Of a stretch of 64,000 nt of DNA, positions 6,291 through 27,694 are shown piece after piece. The stretch is from an uncultured Pseudomonadota bacterium. GTDB lineage: Bacteria; Pseudomonadota; Alphaproteobacteria; RF32; CAG-239. The DNA lies in assembly GCA_949289935.1 (NCBI GenBank), contig CASEQD010000003.1:8816-72815 (forward strand), read 5' to 3'. Numbering within the stretch: the stretch's first letter is position 1; the number at the start of each line of letters is the position of its first letter. The translations under genes and the position numbers were made by a program. Below the pieces are notes generated by a model. That model made no database searches and had not been told where the DNA came from. It was given only the letters and a program-made list of their open reading frames with translations.

Positions 6291-7241
6291 TTAATCATAA
6301 TTTCTGGTTTTAAATACACCGTTTTCATACCCTTGTATCTCACGTTTTTTTTCAGCCAACTCCAAGCGTTTTTCAGCCAAAGCCACATATTCTTTTTCAC
6401 GTTCGATGCCGATGTAGCAACGTCCGAGTTTTTTGGCGACAACCGAAGTTGTACCTGATCCCAAGAAAGGATCAAGAACAACATCGCCGGGATTGCTGGA
6501 AGCCAAAATAAGCTTGGCCATTAGTTTTTCGGGCTTTTGCGTAGGATGAGGCGTGTTTTCGGGCATGGACCAGAAAGGAATGGATATATCCGTCCAAATA
6601 TTTGACGGATGAGTCAGCCGGCAGCATTTTTCTCCTTCACGACGCCAGTCTTTCGGCGCGCCACTGTCATCACGGTAAGGAGCAACCACCGGGCGAAGCA
6701 TTTTAACGCTGTCCAGATTAAACGTGTATTTTTTTGATTTCGTAAAAAACCATATGTCTTCAAGACAATTTTTCCAATTGTCCCTGGCTCCGCGCCCCTT
6801 TTCCCTTTCCCATGATATCCGGTTGCGTAAGATGAAATATTTTCCGGCAACTTCAGGAATGGAAATGGAGGTTTTCCAATCGGCGCAAATATAAAGACTG
6901 GCATTTTCCTTCATAAGACGGGGGAGTTTTTTGAGCCATCTGTTCAACCATTTTTTATATTCAGAAAAATCCCGCTCTTTAAATACACTGTTTCCAAAGT
7001 TTTTGGTCAGGTTATACGGCGGATCGGCAATAATCAAATCAGCACAGGCATCCGGCAGGCAATCCAAAGCTTTGAACACATCCTGGAGGATGGTTTTATT
7101 CAAAACATAATCCAACGACGCCTTAAAATTTAGCTTAAGCGCGCGGCGGGCATAAGCATTTGTTTCTTTCGGCGTTAATTCCAAGGTTTTATTGCGGGGT
7201 GCTTTTTCCGAAGTCATGAGAAAAAATTCAGTCTTCGCCAA
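6291..7241 (-). CDS. Beta-class N6-adenine (or N4-cytosine) DNA methyltransferase, CcrM/HinfI-like orphan
   Basis: Motif IV DPPYN (LIIADPPYNL) precedes the C-terminal motif I FLGSGTT, which is the beta-class order. No adjacent endonuclease. Shorter than canonical CcrM. Confidence 0.75.
   Translation of the reverse strand: MAKTEFFLMTSEKAPRNKTLELTPKETNAYARRALKLNFKASLDYVLNKTILQDVFKALDCLPDACADLIIADPPYNLTKNFGNSVFKERDFSEYKKWLNRWLKKLPRLMKENASLYICADWKTSISIPEVAGKYFILRNRISWEREKGRGARDNWKNCLEDIWFFTKSKKYTFNLDSVKMLRPVVAPYRDDSGAPKDWRREGEKCCRLTHPSNIWTDISIPFWSMPENTPHPTQKPEKLMAKLILASSNPGDVVLDPFLGSGTTSVVAKKLGRCYIGIEREKEYVALAEKRLELAEKKREIQGYENGVFKTRNYD
6978..6992 (+). repeat. Motif copy variant TTTAAATACACTGTT inside the methyltransferase CDS
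   Basis: 14/15 match; encodes NSVFKE in the protein. Confidence 0.8.
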
Positions 7242-7938: not shown

Positions 7939-8358
7939 TTATGCCTTTTTGCCGCAACTCCAACAATGAACGGCGCCGAAACTTTTGATAAGTTCTTCCC
8001 GGCTCTTGGCTTTGACGATTTCATCGGCTCTTGTCCGCCGGCCATTTAAAACAATTTCTTCAACGTTTTCCACGGGGACGCCGTATGTACGGTTTACTAT
8101 TTTTCCCTCCAGCTCGACAATAAGGACAAATTCGGCCTCAGCCAAAGGTTCGCGGGTTTCTTCATGAATATCATCCAGCAAAACGGACAAACGGTCGTCT
8201 CTTTTCAGCAAAGCCCTGCTTTTTCCGTCAAACTCCAATACCGGATTTACGGGAGCATTGTCGCGGGCATCAATAAAAATAGCCAGTTCTCCGTATTTAT
8301 TTTCGATGATTTCGTAAAAATCCTGTTTTTCAATCAGTGTGTAATATTGATTTTCCAT
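7939..8358 (-). CDS. Hypothetical protein with C-terminal CxxC (HCWSCGKK)
   Basis: 139 aa acidic ORF occupying the position where hprK sits in Rhizobiales, but it lacks a P-loop. Confidence 0.4.
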   Translation of the reverse strand: MENQYYTLIEKQDFYEIIENKYGELAIFIDARDNAPVNPVLEFDGKSRALLKRDDRLSVLLDDIHEETREPLAEAEFVLIVELEGKIVNRTYGVPVENVEEIVLNGRRTRADEIVKAKSREELIKSFGAVHCWSCGKKA

Positions 8359-16103: not shown

Positions 16104-16886
16104 TTAAAATTCGATGACAGGATAAACATAACGGGAAAAATCCGCAGGGTCATTGCTCAACCCTCCTTGAACAGTTCCTCCATCAATTGACATAAAAAAC
16201 CAAACTTCACTGGTACCTTTATAGCCTATCGTTGATGACCAACTGTTAGGACTTTCTGAAAATTTTTTGCTTCCGCCAAGTTTGGATATGGTATTGTCTA
16301 TAACAGCCATATTGGTGTAAACACTGTTCCAAACTCCCGCAGCCGGCAGGCACCATTTACCTTTTGTCTTTGAAGCGGCGGATGGCGAATAGTTTTTTGC
16401 CGCCCAGGCTGCCGGATATTCATATGATGAACCTTCCTGCGTTATTTTTTGGGTGTTTCCGCAGCTGTCATAGTCTTTTATTGCCGATGTATAATTATCA
16501 TATCCCGGTAAATCAACCGAAATATAGCTGTCGTCACTTTTCCATTCATATGAACCTATCGAATTTGCAGTTATTGCCTGGCCGCAGTTGTCAGAACCGA
16601 TATATACCACAACGGCAAGCGGTTTTTTTCCGGAAACGATATCGGCGGAACAGGTTCCGTCTGAATTCAGAATATCTCCGATTTTGCAGTTTTTGGCGTA
16701 ACCGGTGCACTGACCGAGAACGGCGGCTTTCGGTTCTTCGGGCTGGCAGGCACCGTCTTTCCATTCGTATCCGTCTTCACAGTCTTTCGGGCAATAATAA
16801 TATTCTCCGAACGGGCATTTTAATCCCGGCGTTTTGCAGGAAGTTTTATTATAGCCCAAACTCACACAACACATTTCATTCTCCAC
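16104..16886 (-). CDS. Cys-rich protein, paralogue of the secreted protein at 26734-27642; N-terminally truncated (no signal peptide, GTG/ATG start immediately after a stop), possible pseudogene
   Basis: Shares LGY..TSC..G.KCPFG, GYEWKDG.CQ, GYAK.C..G..LNSDGTC, KKP...V.YI, CGQAI, DSCGNTQKI.Q.G, YPAAWAA, KG.WCLPAAGV and the C-terminal IEF with the paralogue. Confidence 0.55.
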   Translation of the reverse strand: MENEMCCVSLGYNKTSCKTPGLKCPFGEYYYCPKDCEDGYEWKDGACQPEEPKAAVLGQCTGYAKNCKIGDILNSDGTCSADIVSGKKPLAVVVYIGSDNCGQAITANSIGSYEWKSDDSYISVDLPGYDNYTSAIKDYDSCGNTQKITQEGSSYEYPAAWAAKNYSPSAASKTKGKWCLPAAGVWNSVYTNMAVIDNTISKLGGSKKFSESPNSWSSTIGYKGTSEVWFFMSIDGGTVQGGLSNDPADFSRYVYPVIEF

Positions 16887-22837: not shown

Positions 22838-22932
22838 GATGGAGGGCAGTGGGTTAATTATTCGCCAATCCGGTCAGGTTCGGAAGAAAGCAGCCGTAAC
22901 GAACCAATTAAGGTCAGTGTCCCTCCGCCTTA
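22838..22932 (+). ncRNA. ffs: Signal recognition particle RNA (4.5S, ffs)
   Basis: Conserved domain IV sequence CCGGUCAGGUUCGGAAGAAAGCAGCC, closed by the GGAGGGCAGUG...CAGUGUCCCUCC helix. Sits in the classical position immediately upstream of dnaX. Confidence 0.75.
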
Positions 22933-22953: not shown

Positions 22954-24699
22954 TTGATGGCTGAAGACGAAAACAAAGACAACCAGTATGTTATTCTGGC
23001 GCGAAAGTACCGCCCGCAGACGTTTGAAGATTTGCTCGGGCAGGATGCTCTGGTGCAAACATTGACTAACGCCATTAAAAACAACCGGCTTCATCACGCT
23101 TATATTTTGACAGGAATCCGCGGGGTTGGAAAAACATCAACCGCCAGAATTATTGCCAAGGCATTAAATTGTACGGGAATCGACGGTAAGGGAGGACCGA
23201 CGGTTCATCCCTGCGGGGTATGCGAAAACTGCAAAGCAATTACGGCCGGACGGCATATTGATGTTTTGGAGCTTGACGCCGCATCCCGTACCGGTGTTGA
23301 CGACATCAGAGAAATATTGGACGGTGTTCGCTATAAACCGACGAATGCCCGTTATAAAATATATATTATCGATGAAGTTCATATGCTGTCGAAAAATGCT
23401 TTTAATGCTTTGTTGAAAACGTTGGAAGAGCCTCCTTCTCACGTAAAGTTTATTTTTGCCACGACAGAAATCAGAAAAGTTCCCGTTACCATTCTTTCAC
23501 GCTGTCAACGATTTGATTTGCAGCGTCTGAGAATCGACGAGCTGATGAAAATGTTTCATAAAATTATTGCCGCAGAAGGCTTGAAGGCTGATGAAGAAGC
23601 TTTGCAGCTTCTGGCCAGAGCCGCCGACGGTTCGGCGCGCGATGCGACTTCTTTGCTAGATCAGGCCATATCTCTCGGTGTGGGAAATGTTAAGCTTGAT
23701 GTGGTAAAAAATATGATCGGCTTAGCCGATAAAACCCAAAATTTCGAATTATTTGAACATTTGGTTGCCGGAAACACAGATAAGGTTTTGGCGCTTTTGG
23801 ACAGTCAGTACAAAAACGGCGCCAATCCGATTACCATTTTACAGGATCTGATAAATATCACGCATTTGGCGGCAAAAACCAGAATCATTCCTTCATCTGT
23901 CGATGATCCGGCGGTTTCGGAAGAAGAGAAAGAATTTGCCAAGAGGATGGCCGGCAGTGTATCAATTGCCATTTTATCAAAAATCTGGCAAATGATGATT
24001 AAGGGGATTAGCGAGCTTCAAATTGCTCCGCAGCAAATTGACGCATTGGAGATGATTTTAATCAGAATCGCCTATGCCGCTCATCTTCCCACGCCGTATG
24101 AAATTTTAAACGACGTAAAAAAAAACTCTAATTTAAGCCCGCTGAAAGCCAATTTTGTTTTGCCGCCACAAACGGCCGCGGCAAGGGAAATTTCTTCTCC
24201 TGCCCCGAAAAAGCCGGCTTTGTTCGAACAAAACAGTCCGGAATCGTTTAAAAATATCAAAACCATTGAAGATTTTATCCGTTATTTGGAAGAAACAAAA
24301 AAACTGCTTGTTCTTTATTCTTTCAAAAACGATCTTTCCGTTGAACGTTTTGAAGACGGTTTTATTGAGATGACCGTTTCGGAAAAAATAAATCAGGATT
24401 ATGTTTTGTCCCTGCATAAAATTCTGGAAAAAGCTACCGGAAAGAAGTGGAAGATTGACATTCGCCGGGGAAATCCCGGGCAGACTCTGGCTCAAAAAGA
24501 AAATGCCAAAACGGAAGAAGAAAAAAGAAATATTATGGAATATCCTTTGGTGAAAGCTATTATGGCGGAATTTAAAGGAGCAAAAATTGAAACTCTCACC
24601 CGTAAATTTACCGAAGAAACCGAAGAAGAAGACAGTTCTTCTTTTGTGACGGAAGAAAACGACTTTAATTATACAGACAACAACGAAGACGAGGATTAA
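22954..24699 (+). CDS. dnaX: DNA polymerase III subunits gamma/tau
   Basis: Walker A GIRGVGKTST, DEVHML, the SRC sensor motif, and a Zn-module of Cys residues. Confidence 0.95.
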   Translation: MMAEDENKDNQYVILARKYRPQTFEDLLGQDALVQTLTNAIKNNRLHHAYILTGIRGVGKTSTARIIAKALNCTGIDGKGGPTVHPCGVCENCKAITAGRHIDVLELDAASRTGVDDIREILDGVRYKPTNARYKIYIIDEVHMLSKNAFNALLKTLEEPPSHVKFIFATTEIRKVPVTILSRCQRFDLQRLRIDELMKMFHKIIAAEGLKADEEALQLLARAADGSARDATSLLDQAISLGVGNVKLDVVKNMIGLADKTQNFELFEHLVAGNTDKVLALLDSQYKNGANPITILQDLINITHLAAKTRIIPSSVDDPAVSEEEKEFAKRMAGSVSIAILSKIWQMMIKGISELQIAPQQIDALEMILIRIAYAAHLPTPYEILNDVKKNSNLSPLKANFVLPPQTAAAREISSPAPKKPALFEQNSPESFKNIKTIEDFIRYLEETKKLLVLYSFKNDLSVERFEDGFIEMTVSEKINQDYVLSLHKILEKATGKKWKIDIRRGNPGQTLAQKENAKTEEEKRNIMEYPLVKAIMAEFKGAKIETLTRKFTEETEEEDSSSFVTEENDFNYTDNNEDED

Positions 24700-24705
24700 A
24701 AAAAC

Positions 24706-25026
24706 ATGCTTAATATTCAGGGAATTATGAAACAAGCACAAGCCATGCAGAAAAAAATGGAAGAAATGCAAAACAAGCTTGCCCAGGAAGAAGTTTCCGG
24801 CGTCAGCGGCGGCGGATTGGTTAAGGTAACGATGAATGGAAAATTTGAAATAAAAAAGGTTGAAATTGACAAGTCGTTGATGGTTGCCGACGAAGTTGAC
24901 ATTCTGGAGGATTTAATCGCCGCAGCCGGAAACGATGCCAAAAACAAAGTCGAATCGATGATGGGCGAAAGTATGAAAGACGCTACCGGCGGACTGAATA
25001 TTCCCGGATTGAAACTTCCGTTTTAG
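24706..25026 (+). CDS. ybaB: Nucleoid-associated protein YbaB/EbfC
   Basis: 106 aa with MKQAQAMQ...GGGLVKVTMNG. Confidence 0.9.
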   Translation: MLNIQGIMKQAQAMQKKMEEMQNKLAQEEVSGVSGGGLVKVTMNGKFEIKKVEIDKSLMVADEVDILEDLIAAAGNDAKNKVESMMGESMKDATGGLNIPGLKLPF

Positions 25027-25036
25027 CGAGGGAATC

Positions 25037-25633
25037 GTGGCCGGAAAAGACATAGAAAAACTAATCAAGCTGGTAGCCAAACTGCCGGCGCTGGGAACCA
25101 GATCTTCCCGCAGAATTGTTTTGCAGCTGCTGAAAAAAAAGGAATCGCTTTTTCTGCCTTTGATTGATGCAATGCAAAATGTTGCCGATAATATCAAAGT
25201 CTGTGATATCTGTGGTAATTATGACACGGAATCGCCCTGCTCCATTTGTGCTTCAACAACCCGGGACGCTCATCAGCTTTGCGTTGTTCAGGACGTGGCC
25301 GATTTATGGGCAATGGAGCGTGTTTCAATGTTTAAGGGAAAATATCATGTGCTGGGCGGAATTTTATCCGCTTTAGACGGTGTATCACCGGAAGATTTGA
25401 ATATTGAAAAACTTTTTTTGAGAATCGAAGAAGAAAATATCAGTGAAATTATTCTGGCTCTGCCGGCTACGATTGACGGGCAGATTACTTCAAACTATCT
25501 GCTTCAGCAGCTGAAAGATTCCGGCGTTAAAGTTACAACGCTTGCACAGGGAATTCCCATGGGAGCCGAGCTTGATTATATGGATGAAGGAACCATTCAG
25601 CTGGCGTTGAATTCACGAAAGGTTTTATCATGA
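25037..25633 (+). CDS. recR: Recombination protein RecR
   Basis: C4 zinc finger CDICGN...CSIC, plus Toprim and Walker-B-like regions. Confidence 0.95.
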   Translation: MAGKDIEKLIKLVAKLPALGTRSSRRIVLQLLKKKESLFLPLIDAMQNVADNIKVCDICGNYDTESPCSICASTTRDAHQLCVVQDVADLWAMERVSMFKGKYHVLGGILSALDGVSPEDLNIEKLFLRIEEENISEIILALPATIDGQITSNYLLQQLKDSGVKVTTLAQGIPMGAELDYMDEGTIQLALNSRKVLS

Positions 25634-26403
25634 AAAAATATGACGCGGCCATTCCTCTCGGAAATTTCTGTTCAGCCTCTTTTCATTTGAGGCATAATGG
25701 TTTGCAGGTTGAATCTTATCCGTTTGACTGGGTGGGATTTGACAGCGTGGTTATTCCGGCAACGCTGATTGCCAATGGTTTTAAAGATTTTTTTGTTCCG
25801 GAACGTTTGGAACGGGTTGAGGGAGAAAACGGCAACCATCTGCCTTATATTCAATATCCGGAACATTATCTGTTTTATCATTGCGTAGAAAAGGATTTGC
25901 CTTTTGAAGAGGCTTGTCAAAAGGCCAAAGCTATGTTTGAGCGTCGGATTGCCCGTTTATATGAGCATCTTGAAAAGGCTCGCAACATTTTATTTTTGAA
26001 TGCCAGCAATGATTCCGTCAGGGAAGAAGAAGCCATTGAAGCTCTGGAAATTTTGCAAAAAAAATTTCCCGGCAAGAATATAGACCTTATTGTTGTGGAT
26101 ATGAAGCCGGATTATCACAATTTGGAAATTAAGGAACTCAATGAGCATATTACTTTTGCCAAGCTGAATTTTCATAACAAAAAAAATGAATATTCCGACA
26201 GAAAAGAAGAATTTCAGATTTTGTTAAAAAACCGGAAATTAGCCTCGCAAAAAGAAGTTATCAGGCTTCGTCTGCATCGGAAATTTTTTGCGCTTAAGAG
26301 AGTTCTGGTCAATGCGCTTTGCTGCCTTATTCCGATAAAAAAAGCGAGAAAAGCCATTCGCAAAAAAATGCAGATTTCAACACAGGATTTTAATCATAAT
26401 TAA
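25630..26403 (+). CDS. Hypothetical protein with conserved N-terminal LGNFCSAS motif and a basic C-terminal tail (LCCLIPIKKARKAIRKK)
   Basis: 257 aa, no transmembrane segment. Shares the terminal basic motif with three sugar-modification proteins at 33.3-36.1 kb. Possibly DUF1796-like (from memory only). Confidence 0.4.
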   Translation: MKKYDAAIPLGNFCSASFHLRHNGLQVESYPFDWVGFDSVVIPATLIANGFKDFFVPERLERVEGENGNHLPYIQYPEHYLFYHCVEKDLPFEEACQKAKAMFERRIARLYEHLEKARNILFLNASNDSVREEEAIEALEILQKKFPGKNIDLIVVDMKPDYHNLEIKELNEHITFAKLNFHNKKNEYSDRKEEFQILLKNRKLASQKEVIRLRLHRKFFALKRVLVNALCCLIPIKKARKAIRKKMQISTQDFNHN

Positions 26404-26499
26404 AAATATGGGCGGAATATAAAAATTCCGCTCTTTTTATGTTTCCGATGCGGTTCTATAAAAATATTCTTTATTTTTTAACTTGTTTCCGCTATACTG

Positions 26500-26733
26500 T
26501 TTTTATGCGGTTGAATTGGCCGCTGAGGGCGTGACAACCCTTTATTCACATAGTCGTCGGCATAAACGACTTAAAATAAGAGTATGCTGATATCTGCTAT
26601 TTATGGGCGGATGTCAGCGTTATAAGGCTTTGCACGAAGACGCTGAGCCATTTATGTGAATATGGTTGTCAACATCCGTCCTCCTTTCCGGGAGGATTTT
26701 TTTGTTTTAACTAAAAAACAAGGATGTTGTAAC
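26500..26733 (+). promoter_or_regulatory. Structured 5' leader with intrinsic terminator and alternative antiterminator pairing (riboswitch/attenuator-like)
   Basis: Long-range helix TTATTCACATA (26538-26548) with TATGTGAATA (26655-26664). Internal hairpins GTCGT...ACGAC and GCTGATATC...GGATGTCAGC. Terminator UCCUCC-UUUCCG-GGAGGA plus U7 at about 26679-26705. The GGUUGUCAACAUCC strand can alternatively pair with GGAUGUUGUAAC overlapping the start codon region. Confidence 0.45.
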
Positions 26734-27642
26734 ATGAATACGAATTTCAAATTTTTATTTTCAGGGGCGGGATTGTTTTTAATTCCGCTGGCGGCTTCTG
26801 CACAATGCATAGCAACAACTGATTGTGCCACGTTAGGTTATACTGAAACATCTTGCCCAAACGGCAAAGGTATTAAATGTCCCTTTGGCGATACTTGGGC
26901 TTGTCCGACAACAGAAACAGAATTTTGCGAAAAATATGGTTTCAAATATGACTGTTCCGGTTCCGGATATAAAGGCGGCGGGGAGAGCTCCTGTAATGGG
27001 AAATATGCTTTTTGCAACTGCCAGAACGGATATGAATGGAAAGATGGAAAATGCCAGAGAAAAAGCATGATAGAAACTTCTTTGGGATATTGTTCCGGTT
27101 ATGCCAAGTTTTGCCGACTAGGTCAGTTGTTGAACAGCGACGGAACATGTACAGATAAAGAAGAACCCAATAAAAAACCAATCGGAACCGTAGCTTATAT
27201 TAGTGTTGAAGGCTGCGGACAAGCCATTGCTCCCGTAACATCAGCAGCATGGTCGACCGTAGATAACGAAACGGGCGCTTTTTCAACTATTTCTGCCGAA
27301 GAGGCCTGGAATGATTTTGACAGTTGCGGCAATACACAAAAAATTATTCAAAATGGAGATAAAAGTAAATATCCGGCGGCTTGGGCTGCTGTTGACTATG
27401 CTCCGGAAAATGCTCCGGAAACAAAAGGATTATGGTGTCTTCCCGCTGCCGGAGTATTTCATCATATGTATGAAAACAGAAATGTTTTTACAGATGACTG
27501 GTATTCCCGATGGTCGTCAACAGAATCTTCAGCATGGAATGCCTGGGAACTGGAATTTGATGATAAATACGGAACAGGAGGGATTGTCAGCTCTCGAAAA
27601 GATAATGGCAACCGTGAGGTTTGGGCCGTTATTGAATTTTAA
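26734..27642 (+). CDS. Secreted Cys-rich protein (the ORF track starts at 26656; real start MNTNFKF with AAGGA RBS)
   Basis: Signal peptide LFLIPLAASA; more than 25 Cys; repeated GYEWKDGKCQ-type modules; C-terminal VIEF. Paralogue of 16104-16886. Confidence 0.6.
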   Translation: MNTNFKFLFSGAGLFLIPLAASAQCIATTDCATLGYTETSCPNGKGIKCPFGDTWACPTTETEFCEKYGFKYDCSGSGYKGGGESSCNGKYAFCNCQNGYEWKDGKCQRKSMIETSLGYCSGYAKFCRLGQLLNSDGTCTDKEEPNKKPIGTVAYISVEGCGQAIAPVTSAAWSTVDNETGAFSTISAEEAWNDFDSCGNTQKIIQNGDKSKYPAAWAAVDYAPENAPETKGLWCLPAAGVFHHMYENRNVFTDDWYSRWSSTESSAWNAWELEFDDKYGTGGIVSSRKDNGNREVWAVIEF

Positions 27643-27694
27643 CTTTAATGATTTTAAGGCAGGTTTTACAACCTGCCTTGTTTTTTCTTTTGCC

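Follow-up and report, generated by a model that had tools for sequence, protein, structure and literature searches.

The question raised by this locus is what kind of RNA is formed by the approximately 230 nucleotides (nt) that precede the gene for a 302-amino-acid (aa) cysteine (Cys)-rich secreted protein in an uncultured alphaproteobacterium (GTDB lineage RF32; CAG-239). The whole stretch of DNA analyzed, 64,000 nt of contig CASEQD010000003.1, is referred to here as the window. A preliminary description of it, made from the sequence alone, proposed a structured cis-located leader with an intrinsic terminator and a strand able to pair with the Shine-Dalgarno (SD) sequence; our comparative analysis supported such a leader and also its conservation. 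Judged by comparison with its relatives, the segment from 26505 to 26733 is the promoter-proximal 5' untranslated region (UTR), or leader, of the mRNA for a Cys-rich, Lcl/DUF1566-like secreted protein. The same comparison identifies the leader as a member of an uncatalogued cis-regulatory RNA family in uncultured gut Alphaproteobacteria (the 'CAG-495'/Candidatus Scatocola/'uncultured Azospirillum' group). We consider it probable, with considerable reserve, that this RNA acts as a new kind of attenuator or riboswitch-like device, OFF by default, which combines the exchange of an anti-SD strand with a terminator.

Fold and covariation of the leader RNA

The 241-nt RNA had a minimum free energy (MFE) of -89.3 kcal/mol, compared with -57.2 +/- 4.3 kcal/mol for dinucleotide shuffles (z = -7.43), and none of the 200 shuffles was as stable; the opposite strand of the leader gave z = -5.5. 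The fold consisted, in order, of a 5' terminal hairpin, a four-way junction formed by hairpins A, B, and C and closed by helices P1b-P1-P0, the terminator, a hairpin between the U-tract and an A-tract, the SD sequence, and the start codon ATG at 26734 (Table 1). The long-range closing helix of the preliminary description, TATTCACATA with TATGTGAATA, proved to be real. Its two 10-nt strands (P1b) are 100% complementary and lie 100 nt apart, and the helix extends outward through GACAACC and GGTTGTC (P1). Three internal hairpins were found instead of the two that had been proposed, and the 5' terminal hairpin came in addition. The canonical intrinsic terminator was present as GTCCTCCT-TTCC-GGGAGGAT followed by T7GT4. 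As had been suggested, the strand just 5' of the terminator (GGUUGUCAACAUCC) pairs with the SD region, and this pairing covaries across leader types; CAACAUCC and GGAUGUUG form 8 contiguous base pairs (bp) over the SD sequence. However, the SD helix and the terminator coexist in a three-way junction in the MFE fold, and therefore the wording that termination and SD sequestration are mutually exclusive was incorrect. The N-terminal extension of the open reading frame (ORF), which begins at GTG 26656 and had been called an artefact, is indeed one, because public annotations predict a product of 302 aa and every paralog starts at the Met that corresponds to ATG 26734.

To collect homologous leaders, a single scan of metagenomes was made for exact matches to a 20-base pattern taken from the core. 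It gave 46 loci, 6 of them chance matches, and profile and covariance model (CM) searches added copies without the exact pattern. The total was about 42 homologous copies, with 35 distinct type I leaders; individual loci are given below by their L numbers. Covariation was counted on a CM alignment of 36 distinct rows. In this alignment, 98.8% of the cells were paired and 18 of the 49 pairs showed changes on both sides. None of 500 shuffles matched the observed percentage paired, the number of cells changed on both sides, or the covariation score, and slid controls were only 31 to 51% paired. Thus, the leader contains the conserved structured domain, backed by covariation, that is expected of a riboswitch. 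The preliminary description had named a lack of structural conservation in relatives as evidence that would count against it; since the fold was kept in relatives with many compensatory changes, that objection does not apply.

All seven modelled pairs of P1b were changed on both sides, with 4 to 5 pair types each, and the outer three pairs of P1 also covaried (CG 23, GC 7, and AU 6; GC 18 and AU 17; AU 16, CG 16, and UA 4). P1 occurred in 12 distinct variants, and the 35 leaders had 23 distinct P1b sequences. Hairpins A, B, and C were nearly invariant or showed only changes between G:C and G:U. Mean pairwise identity was 0.40 for P1b, 0.44 for outer P1, 0.80 for the 5' hairpin stem, and 0.83 to 0.99 for the rest of the domain. 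The part UUAAAAUAAG of the junction strand was invariant in all copies, including two found by other routes (L140 and L124), an invariance that is partly imposed by the search pattern. Judged from this alignment, the closing helix varies and the core is conserved, as is classical for aptamers, but here in an extreme form.

The leader was compared with the 4,227 models of Rfam 15 at gathering thresholds and then at E <= 10. At gathering thresholds, nothing was found in 26500 to 26733, and in the window only two tRNAs and the signal recognition particle (SRP) RNA were detected. At E <= 10, the leader gave only chance-level matches, such as SNORD116 and Phe_leader at 16 to 18 bits. Among the Rfam leader families, the best match was L20_leader (25.5 bits, against a cut-off of 58.7 bits), and it lay on the terminator of the upstream gene, outside the leader. 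The related leaders in L135, L133, L069, L140, L042, and L083 also had no Rfam match. These results agree with the preliminary description, in which no known riboswitch class had been recognized. In the literature, nothing relevant was found on RF32 riboswitches, on RNA motifs linked to DUF1566, or on structured RNAs of gut Alphaproteobacteria. SRP RNA, 6S RNA, or another known RNA, suggested by the dnaX-ybaB-recR neighborhood, was rejected as an identity of the leader: the SRP RNA lies elsewhere (Table 1), and the leader matched no Rfam model.

Proposed SD exchange and a possible second conformation

We compared 40 distinct expression platforms, including those of the divergent leader types described below (type II and helix-turn-helix [HTH] type). 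A MAFFT alignment of the platforms misplaced the SD sequence, and the pairs were counted by an anchored script instead. Positions 1 to 5 of the helix between the anti-SD and the SD sequence were paired in all 40 platforms, position 6 in 36, and position 7 in 34. Compensatory forms of this helix were ACAUCC:GGAUGU, ACACCC:GGGUGU (L140), AGCUCC:GGAGCU (type II), and AACUCC:GGAGUU (HTH type). Copies with a weakened core (GGAUGA) gained pairing to their own variable P1 3' strand, through UUGACA with UGUCAA in L083 and L089 and through AGUAAC with GUUACU in L092 and L130. The 40 platforms had 36 distinct terminator sequences, all of which formed hairpins of -9.9 to -16.5 kcal/mol with a U-tract; by sequence, they are G+C-rich stem-loops followed immediately by the U-tract, as in intrinsic terminators. 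The elements UUUUGUUUUAAC...AAAACAAGGA were kept in all three leader types.

The anti-SD ACAUCC is also the 3' strand of P0, which lengthens P1 via GGGCGU in both the RNAalifold and the MFE folds. Thus, the SD helix competes with P1/P0, the helix that closes the upstream domain. For leaders of full length, the states with P0 and with the SD helix were nearly isoenergetic, with a mean difference of -0.7 kcal/mol (range, -4.8 to +6.9), and the mean unpaired probability of the SD sequence was 0.15. P0 shifted in step with the anti-SD: the L069 type has GGAGU:ACUCC, and in L140 a G:U pair becomes G:C.

In addition to the closed fold, an alternative hairpin (Alt-H) was found that excludes P1, P1b, and the base of hairpin C. 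Alt-H has 6 bp (AGCCRU with AYGGUU), and 98.6% of its cells were paired. Its R:Y pair, which joins the purine that follows GAGCC to the pyrimidine of UAYGGUU, was GC in 23 and AU in 12 of the 35 leaders, with no wobble or unpaired cell, and it ranked 8th by mutual information among all column pairs, right behind the pairs of P1b and P1. Type II and L069/HTH-type leaders have an equivalent, ACUG:CAGU, around their own P1b 3' strand. We take these observations as evidence for Alt-H as an open state, which would need an effector or kinetic help to form.

Hairpin B repeats elements of the platform. Its 5' strand (AUGCUGAUAUCUGCU) copies the anti-SD region in wobble form, and its 3' strand (GGCGGAUGUCAGCGU) carries a GGAUGU SD mimic and is complementary to ACAUCCGUCC. 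The complementarity of the 3' strand to ACAUCCGYCC is conserved and tracks variants, with C:G versus U/U at columns 155 and 229, GGGUG:CACCC in L140, and GGCGGAG, GGUGGAG, or AGUGGAG in type II. This pairing of the 3' strand (with ACAUCCGCCC, or as GGGCGGAUGU with ACAUCCGUCC), the sole antiterminator candidate, was rejected as a spontaneous switch, because the forced helix costs 12 to 27 kcal/mol (mean, 20), and was kept only as a possible effector-driven state. The shifted register GGGCG:CGCCC, also considered as an antiterminator, was rejected because it was mismatched in the CUCCC and CGGCC variants.

Two other regulatory elements were considered and rejected. A leader peptide (AUG CUG AUA UCU GUC UAG) was not conserved among the copies; the only recurrent AUG (26585, in hairpin B) had no conserved SD sequence, and its frame and stop vary among copies. 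The sequence ACAAGGAUGU resembles the consensus from systematic evolution of ligands by exponential enrichment (SELEX) for CsrA-type sites, but type II and HTH-type leaders carry GGAGCU or GGAGUU at this position, and we therefore regard the resemblance as a coincidence with the SD sequence.

Copies, downstream proteins, and gene context

The leader was linked to one protein family. Every copy with a readable downstream product preceded, on the same strand, a paralog of the same family (MNINFKFLLLGTSLSLIP...AQC..., 262 to 339 aa); the product in L123 is cut short at 80 aa. The ATG lay 137 to 177 nt past the start of the pattern, and 163 to 177 nt in all copies but L117, for which the script picked an upstream TTG. 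Only 25 to 35 nt separate the U-tract from the ATG, leaving no room for a separate promoter. At least 10 copies were present in ERZ780157 (contigs at 30-39x) and at least 11 in UESE01 (contigs at 101-164x); many copies per assembly at similar coverage indicate that the element is multi-copy within genomes.

The family's conservation starts at the promoter and runs on into the signal-peptide codons. Over 34 copies aligned on the 5' hairpin, the promoter consensus was a TTGCTA-like -35 element, a 17-nt spacer, and TGnTAnnnT. Transcription is therefore inferred to start at about 26505, 1 to 2 nt 5' of the 5' hairpin, from a sigma-70-type promoter. With the start site so placed, the leader has the position of a riboswitch, in a same-strand 5' UTR downstream of a promoter.

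The downstream protein was modelled with AlphaFold2 (AF2; mean predicted local distance difference test score [pLDDT], 85.5). In Foldseek searches, its C-terminal half matched the C-terminal domain of Legionella Lcl (8q4e; E = 4e-5) and a fimbrial protein of Bacteroides (4eps; E = 7e-5), and a longer family member had a weak Pfam Lcl_C match. The N-terminal part is a Cys-rich module after the signal peptide. A homologue search found 691 proteins, and among the best 120 of the 691, whose names were read, none carried a functional name from its source.

At the recR locus, the leader had a narrow distribution. Among 80 RecR loci of related species, it was found only in the two closest (L003 and L005), with the same synteny and the Cys-rich gene downstream. 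In loci such as L004 and L074, the DUF1796 gene directly adjoins cvpA, indicating that the leader and the gene were gained or lost as one unit. The RecR relatives at 72 to 88% identity are metagenome-assembled genomes named 'uncultured Azospirillum sp.', 'Proteobacteria bacterium CAG:495', and 'Candidatus Scatocola'; all of them come from the guts of humans and animals. The DUF1796 gene was present in a minority of the related RecR loci but in all three loci with the leader-gene cassette at the recR position. The SRP RNA-dnaX arrangement of the window was also present in L069 and L042. In L140, 2273-2427 (-), an Rfam match to the rpsB small RNA (sRNA)/leader (45 bits) lies 5' of rpsB-tsf in a related organism.

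Type II leaders were found in L004, L042, L106 (3876), L133, and L135. They share the 5' hairpin, a P0-like GGUGU, a covarying P1, a hypervariable P1b, and an internal hairpin mimicking the SD:anti-SD pairing, as well as the anti-SD, the terminator, and UUUGUUUUAAC...AAACAAAGGAG. The L135 leader (270-496; contig k87_5719135 of ERZ17292903, the metagenome that also yielded the window's contig) precedes the family paralog P0033 behind a promoter almost identical to that of the window (TTCTTTATTTTTTAAC..CCGCTATACT). It thus seems that a single organism combines one promoter and expression platform with two sensor architectures. Shorter leaders of the same layout, without hairpins A and B, lie between cvpA and recR in L069 (6870-7065, -), L073, and L080 and precede 77-aa ORFs; in L042 (about 8020-8250, -), a type II leader in the same position precedes an 86-aa ORF. 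The 77-aa and 86-aa products were only weakly similar to Cro/C1-type HTH domains (E = 4e-4 to 8e-3) and did not reach the Pfam cut-offs. A related leader between cvpA and recR in L060 (about 6800-7026, +) likewise precedes an ORF; it has mismatched P1 strands and may be a degenerate copy.

Some family members are leaderless. L129, L136, and L138 encode members with other signal-peptide types, in tandem operons, where they follow another called gene after 21 to 28 nt; in L136 and L138, that preceding gene has the look of a Cys-rich coding sequence. The leader is thus restricted to part of the protein family. The window itself contains a second Cys-rich paralog at 16104-16886 (-), with 37% identity over 299 aa, which lacks the signal peptide and the structured leader; upstream of it, to about 17000, the family's TCTTCTTTATTTTTTT promoter-like motif is retained. 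This paralog is probably a truncated or decaying copy. In L122 (1847-2100), a type I leader is followed by AAGGATGTTTCAACATTATAGGGAC; the family gene behind this intact leader lacks its start codon and the first codons of the signal peptide and is therefore probably a pseudogene. In the copies of L108 (2045-2234), L109 (1051-1240), and L111 (7539-7728), the P1b/P1 5' strands are of the L088 type but the 3' strands are those of a different copy, so that mismatches arise; these copies look like products of recombination between paralogous leaders. By calculation, the P0 state of these three was 4.5 to 6.9 kcal/mol worse than the SD-helix state. G+C-rich palindromic repeats (such as CCCTCTCCCTTGAGGGGAGAGGGT and CTCCCTCCCTGAGGTAGGGAGGG) lie 5' of family genes in L135 (1-90) and L138 (4560-4700) and look like repetitive extragenic palindromic (REP)-type elements of these genomes.

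Table 1. Positions of the leader's parts and of the neighboring features in the window
Feature	Position	Strand	Remarks
SRP RNA	22838-22932		60.7 bits, bacterial small SRP; directly 5' of dnaX
dnaX	22954-24699		
ybaB	24706-25026		
recR	25037-25633		
DUF1796 gene (putative papain-like peptidase)	25630-26403		overlaps recR stop codon by 4 nt
Terminator of DUF1796 gene	26410-26433		
Promoter	26470-26498	+	-35 TTTATT 26470-26475; 17-nt spacer; -10 TATACT 26493-26498
Leader element	about 26505-26733	+	
5' terminal hairpin GCGGUU-GAAUU-GGCCGC	26507-26523	+	MFE fold; 5/5 pairs changed on both sides within family
P0 5' strand GGGCGU (SD mimic)	26527-26532	+	pairs with anti-SD ACAUCC 26672-26677; RNAalifold and MFE
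P1 5' strand GACAACC	26533-26539	+	pairs with 26664-26670
P1b 5' strand UAUUCACAUA, hypervariable helix	26543-26552	+	pairs with 26653-26662
Hairpin A, GUCGU-CGGCAUAA-ACGAC	26553-26570	+	100% paired; 0.95 identity
Junction strand UUAAAAUAAGAGU	26571-26583	+	conserved
Hairpin B	26584-26620	+	99.8% paired, mostly G:C to G:U changes
Hairpin C, GGCUU...GAGCC	26626-26649	+	two sequence forms in family
Alternative hairpin Alt-H	26646-26667	+	AGCCAU 26646-26651 with AUGGUU 26662-26667; loop is P1b 3' strand
P1b 3' strand UAUGUGAAUA	26653-26662	+	
P1 3' strand GGUUGUC	26664-26670	+	
Anti-SD CAACAUCC	26670-26677	+	partner is P0 (26527-26532) or SD region (26722-26729)
Intrinsic terminator	26678-26708	+	stem-loop 26678-26697, then U7GU4
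U-tract:A-tract hairpin, UUUUUUGUUU with AAAAACAAGG	26699-26724	+	reaches into SD; MFE folds
SD AAGGA	26720-26724	+	
SD-helix strand GGAUGUUG	26722-26729	+	
Start codon ATG	26734-26736	+	
302-aa Cys-rich secreted-protein gene	26734-27642	+	C-terminal half with Lcl/DUF1566 lectin-like fold
Terminator 3' of Cys-rich gene	27655-27680		
cvpA, radA	downstream of Cys-rich gene's terminator	-	

Proposed mechanism and rival explanations

In the device that we favor, the junction domain would be the sensor of an effector, which could be a small molecule, a protein, or an RNA. The terminator would end most transcripts early and yield a leader RNA of about 200 nt. In read-through mRNA, the anti-SD would toggle between the closing helix of the four-way junction and the SD sequence. 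With the domain locked closed, P0 would hold the anti-SD and leave the SD sequence free; with the domain unlocked, the anti-SD, in some copies together with the P1 3' strand, would capture the SD sequence and block translation. Alt-H would mark the open conformation. Early termination and SD capture would keep the gene off by default at two levels. Because the same leader stands before at least 10 paralogs in each genome, a single signal could control the adhesin-like family as a whole.

Several points weigh against this device. The 20-base exact pattern inflates the apparent conservation of those bases in the type I set. P0 is invariant within type I, and its support comes from a few divergent leaders only. 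Alt-H was approximately 9.5 kcal/mol less stable than the closed fold (the SD helix forms when Alt-H is forced); Alt-H is also marked by one covarying pair whose positions are 16 nt apart, and co-inheritance could account for it. No credible antiterminator was found from the forced-fold energies over the leaders, and the cost of the sole candidate makes the terminator look constitutive in silico. The associated genes, encoding adhesin-like proteins and small HTH proteins, suggest no metabolite. Furthermore, transcription start, termination, and read-through are all read from sequence, and the thermodynamic models ignore tertiary structure and co-transcriptional kinetics.

A protein-dependent leader, in which a dedicated RNA-binding antiterminator or translational regulator reads the nearly invariant hairpins and the junction and thereby lifts or imposes termination and SD capture, with no small-molecule ligand, is a possible but less likely explanation. 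The high conservation of hairpins A and B and the junction strands in sequence (0.88 to 0.95), and not in pairing alone, is typical of protein recognition sites, the absence of an energetically plausible intramolecular antiterminator fits the need for an external factor, and the regulon is one surface or secreted family plus small regulators rather than metabolic genes. However, no candidate regulator gene was linked to the copies, whose neighbors are unrelated housekeeping genes, and a variable helix that closes a four-way junction is just as typical of aptamers.

More tentatively still, the default-OFF device may be a new orphan riboswitch class with type II as its sister class on the same expression platform. 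In uncultured human-gut Alphaproteobacteria, it would be a sensor of a signalling molecule that jointly controls a hypervariable family of at least 10 secreted lectin/adhesin-like proteins by switching between the closed P0-P1-P1b fold and the open Alt-H fold, both of them backed by covariation, and the hypervariable P1b, exposed in the loop of Alt-H, could be a locus-specific address. If so, the P1b address would permit separate control of family members, for example, via the terminated leader RNA of the same locus.

The leader could also be an independent sRNA gene of approximately 200 nt, whose product acts in trans, for example through ACAUCC on the family's GGAUGU SD sequences, with downstream expression by incidental read-through; we consider this improbable. 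Such a gene would have its own promoter and strong canonical terminator, and trans pairing would be possible, as the anti-SD and SD sequences are common to at least 10 loci per genome. The terminated S-adenosylmethionine (SAM) riboswitches SreA and SreB reportedly act in trans in Listeria, which offers a precedent. By analogy with these, premature termination would free a stable structured RNA of about 200 nt with an exposed or exchangeable anti-SD, but trans action of the leader is purely hypothetical. The downstream genes, lacking a promoter of their own in the 25 to 35 nt after the U-tract, depend on read-through, and in L083, L092, and L099 the SD region pairs with the P1 3' strand of its own leader, a point in favor of action in cis. 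The two roles are nevertheless compatible with each other.

That the leader is only a constitutive structural 5' UTR, which protects or stabilizes the mRNA or serves as a scaffold while its alternative pairings are coincidental, is very unlikely. The closed fold is much more stable than any other state, and a 5' terminal hairpin is typical of stabilizing elements. However, a strong terminator inside a purely stabilizing UTR would be counterproductive, the anti-SD:SD helix covaries while the P0 and SD states are balanced, and the R:Y pair of Alt-H covaries though it is incompatible with the closed fold. There is next to no chance of a repeat acting at the DNA level, either a miniature inverted-repeat transposable element (MITE) or an invertible phase-variation segment bounded by TATTCACATA and TATGTGAATA: at least 10 copies per assembly and an inverted repeat at both bounds would suit it, but the inverted repeats differ completely between copies (0.40 identity) around a conserved interior, the opposite of transposon and invertase sites, the G:U pairs and compensatory changes reflect selection on RNA, every copy has the same orientation and distance to its family gene with no inverted interior, and the promoter lies outside the inverted repeat. 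Membership of the MITE/REP-type repeats was rejected for the same features, the terminal repeats being the least conserved part and all copies pointing toward the family gene; an invertible promoter was likewise rejected, as the profile matches were collinear, full length, and in one orientation.

We also compared the favored device with known systems. Translational ON riboswitches, such as the Vibrio vulnificus add adenine riboswitch, exchange a strand between P1 and the anti-SD. The leader resembles this type in sharing the 3' strand of the closing helix with the SD-pairing segment, in the balance of the two states, and in its variable closing helix and conserved core. In contrast, it has no match to the purine class or to any other Rfam class, its junction is four-way instead of three-way, its anti-SD is separated from the SD sequence by an intrinsic terminator, and the downstream genes are not metabolic. 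The cyclic di-GMP (c-di-GMP) riboswitches GEMM-I and GEMM-II occur in many copies before genes for adhesins, pili, and surface proteins, as in Clostridioides difficile and Geobacter. The leader likewise has many copies per genome, located in the 5' UTRs of secreted/adhesin-like genes with terminator-based platforms, an analogy only and no evidence for a ligand; however, it did not match the GEMM models of Rfam even at E <= 10. A GGDEF motif was matched once in the 1.4 megabases (Mb) of DNA scanned, in an unrelated chance locus, an uninformative result given that the sample is redundant and includes loci of other organisms.

Trp-type leader-peptide attenuators and the protein-mediated PyrR and TRAP attenuators have the same combination of leader and intrinsic terminator. 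As in the 1:2/2:3/3:4 arrangement of classical attenuators, the 5' strand of hairpin B nearly copies the anti-SD and the 5' region of the terminator, and its 3' strand is complementary to both. Unlike these, the leader has no conserved leader peptide, and its 2:3-like helix costs approximately +20 kcal/mol.

For RNA biology, the leader is an orphan candidate with strong covariation, a balanced anti-SD exchange, and evidence for a second conformation, and two sensor architectures on one expression platform provide a natural experiment on modularity. With a CM of the leader family, hundreds of genes now called "hypothetical" would receive their true starts, and false N-terminal extensions like that in the window would disappear. 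To our knowledge, these Alphaproteobacteria occur commonly in the guts of humans and animals, yet none has ever been grown in culture, and almost nothing is therefore known of their gene regulation. A cassette of promoter, leader, and terminator that is reused before at least 10 Cys-rich paralogs with the C-terminal fold of Legionella Lcl would be a control device specific to this lineage, and its reuse suggests that surface factors which bind the host or glycans are controlled in a co-ordinated way and possibly can also be addressed one by one.

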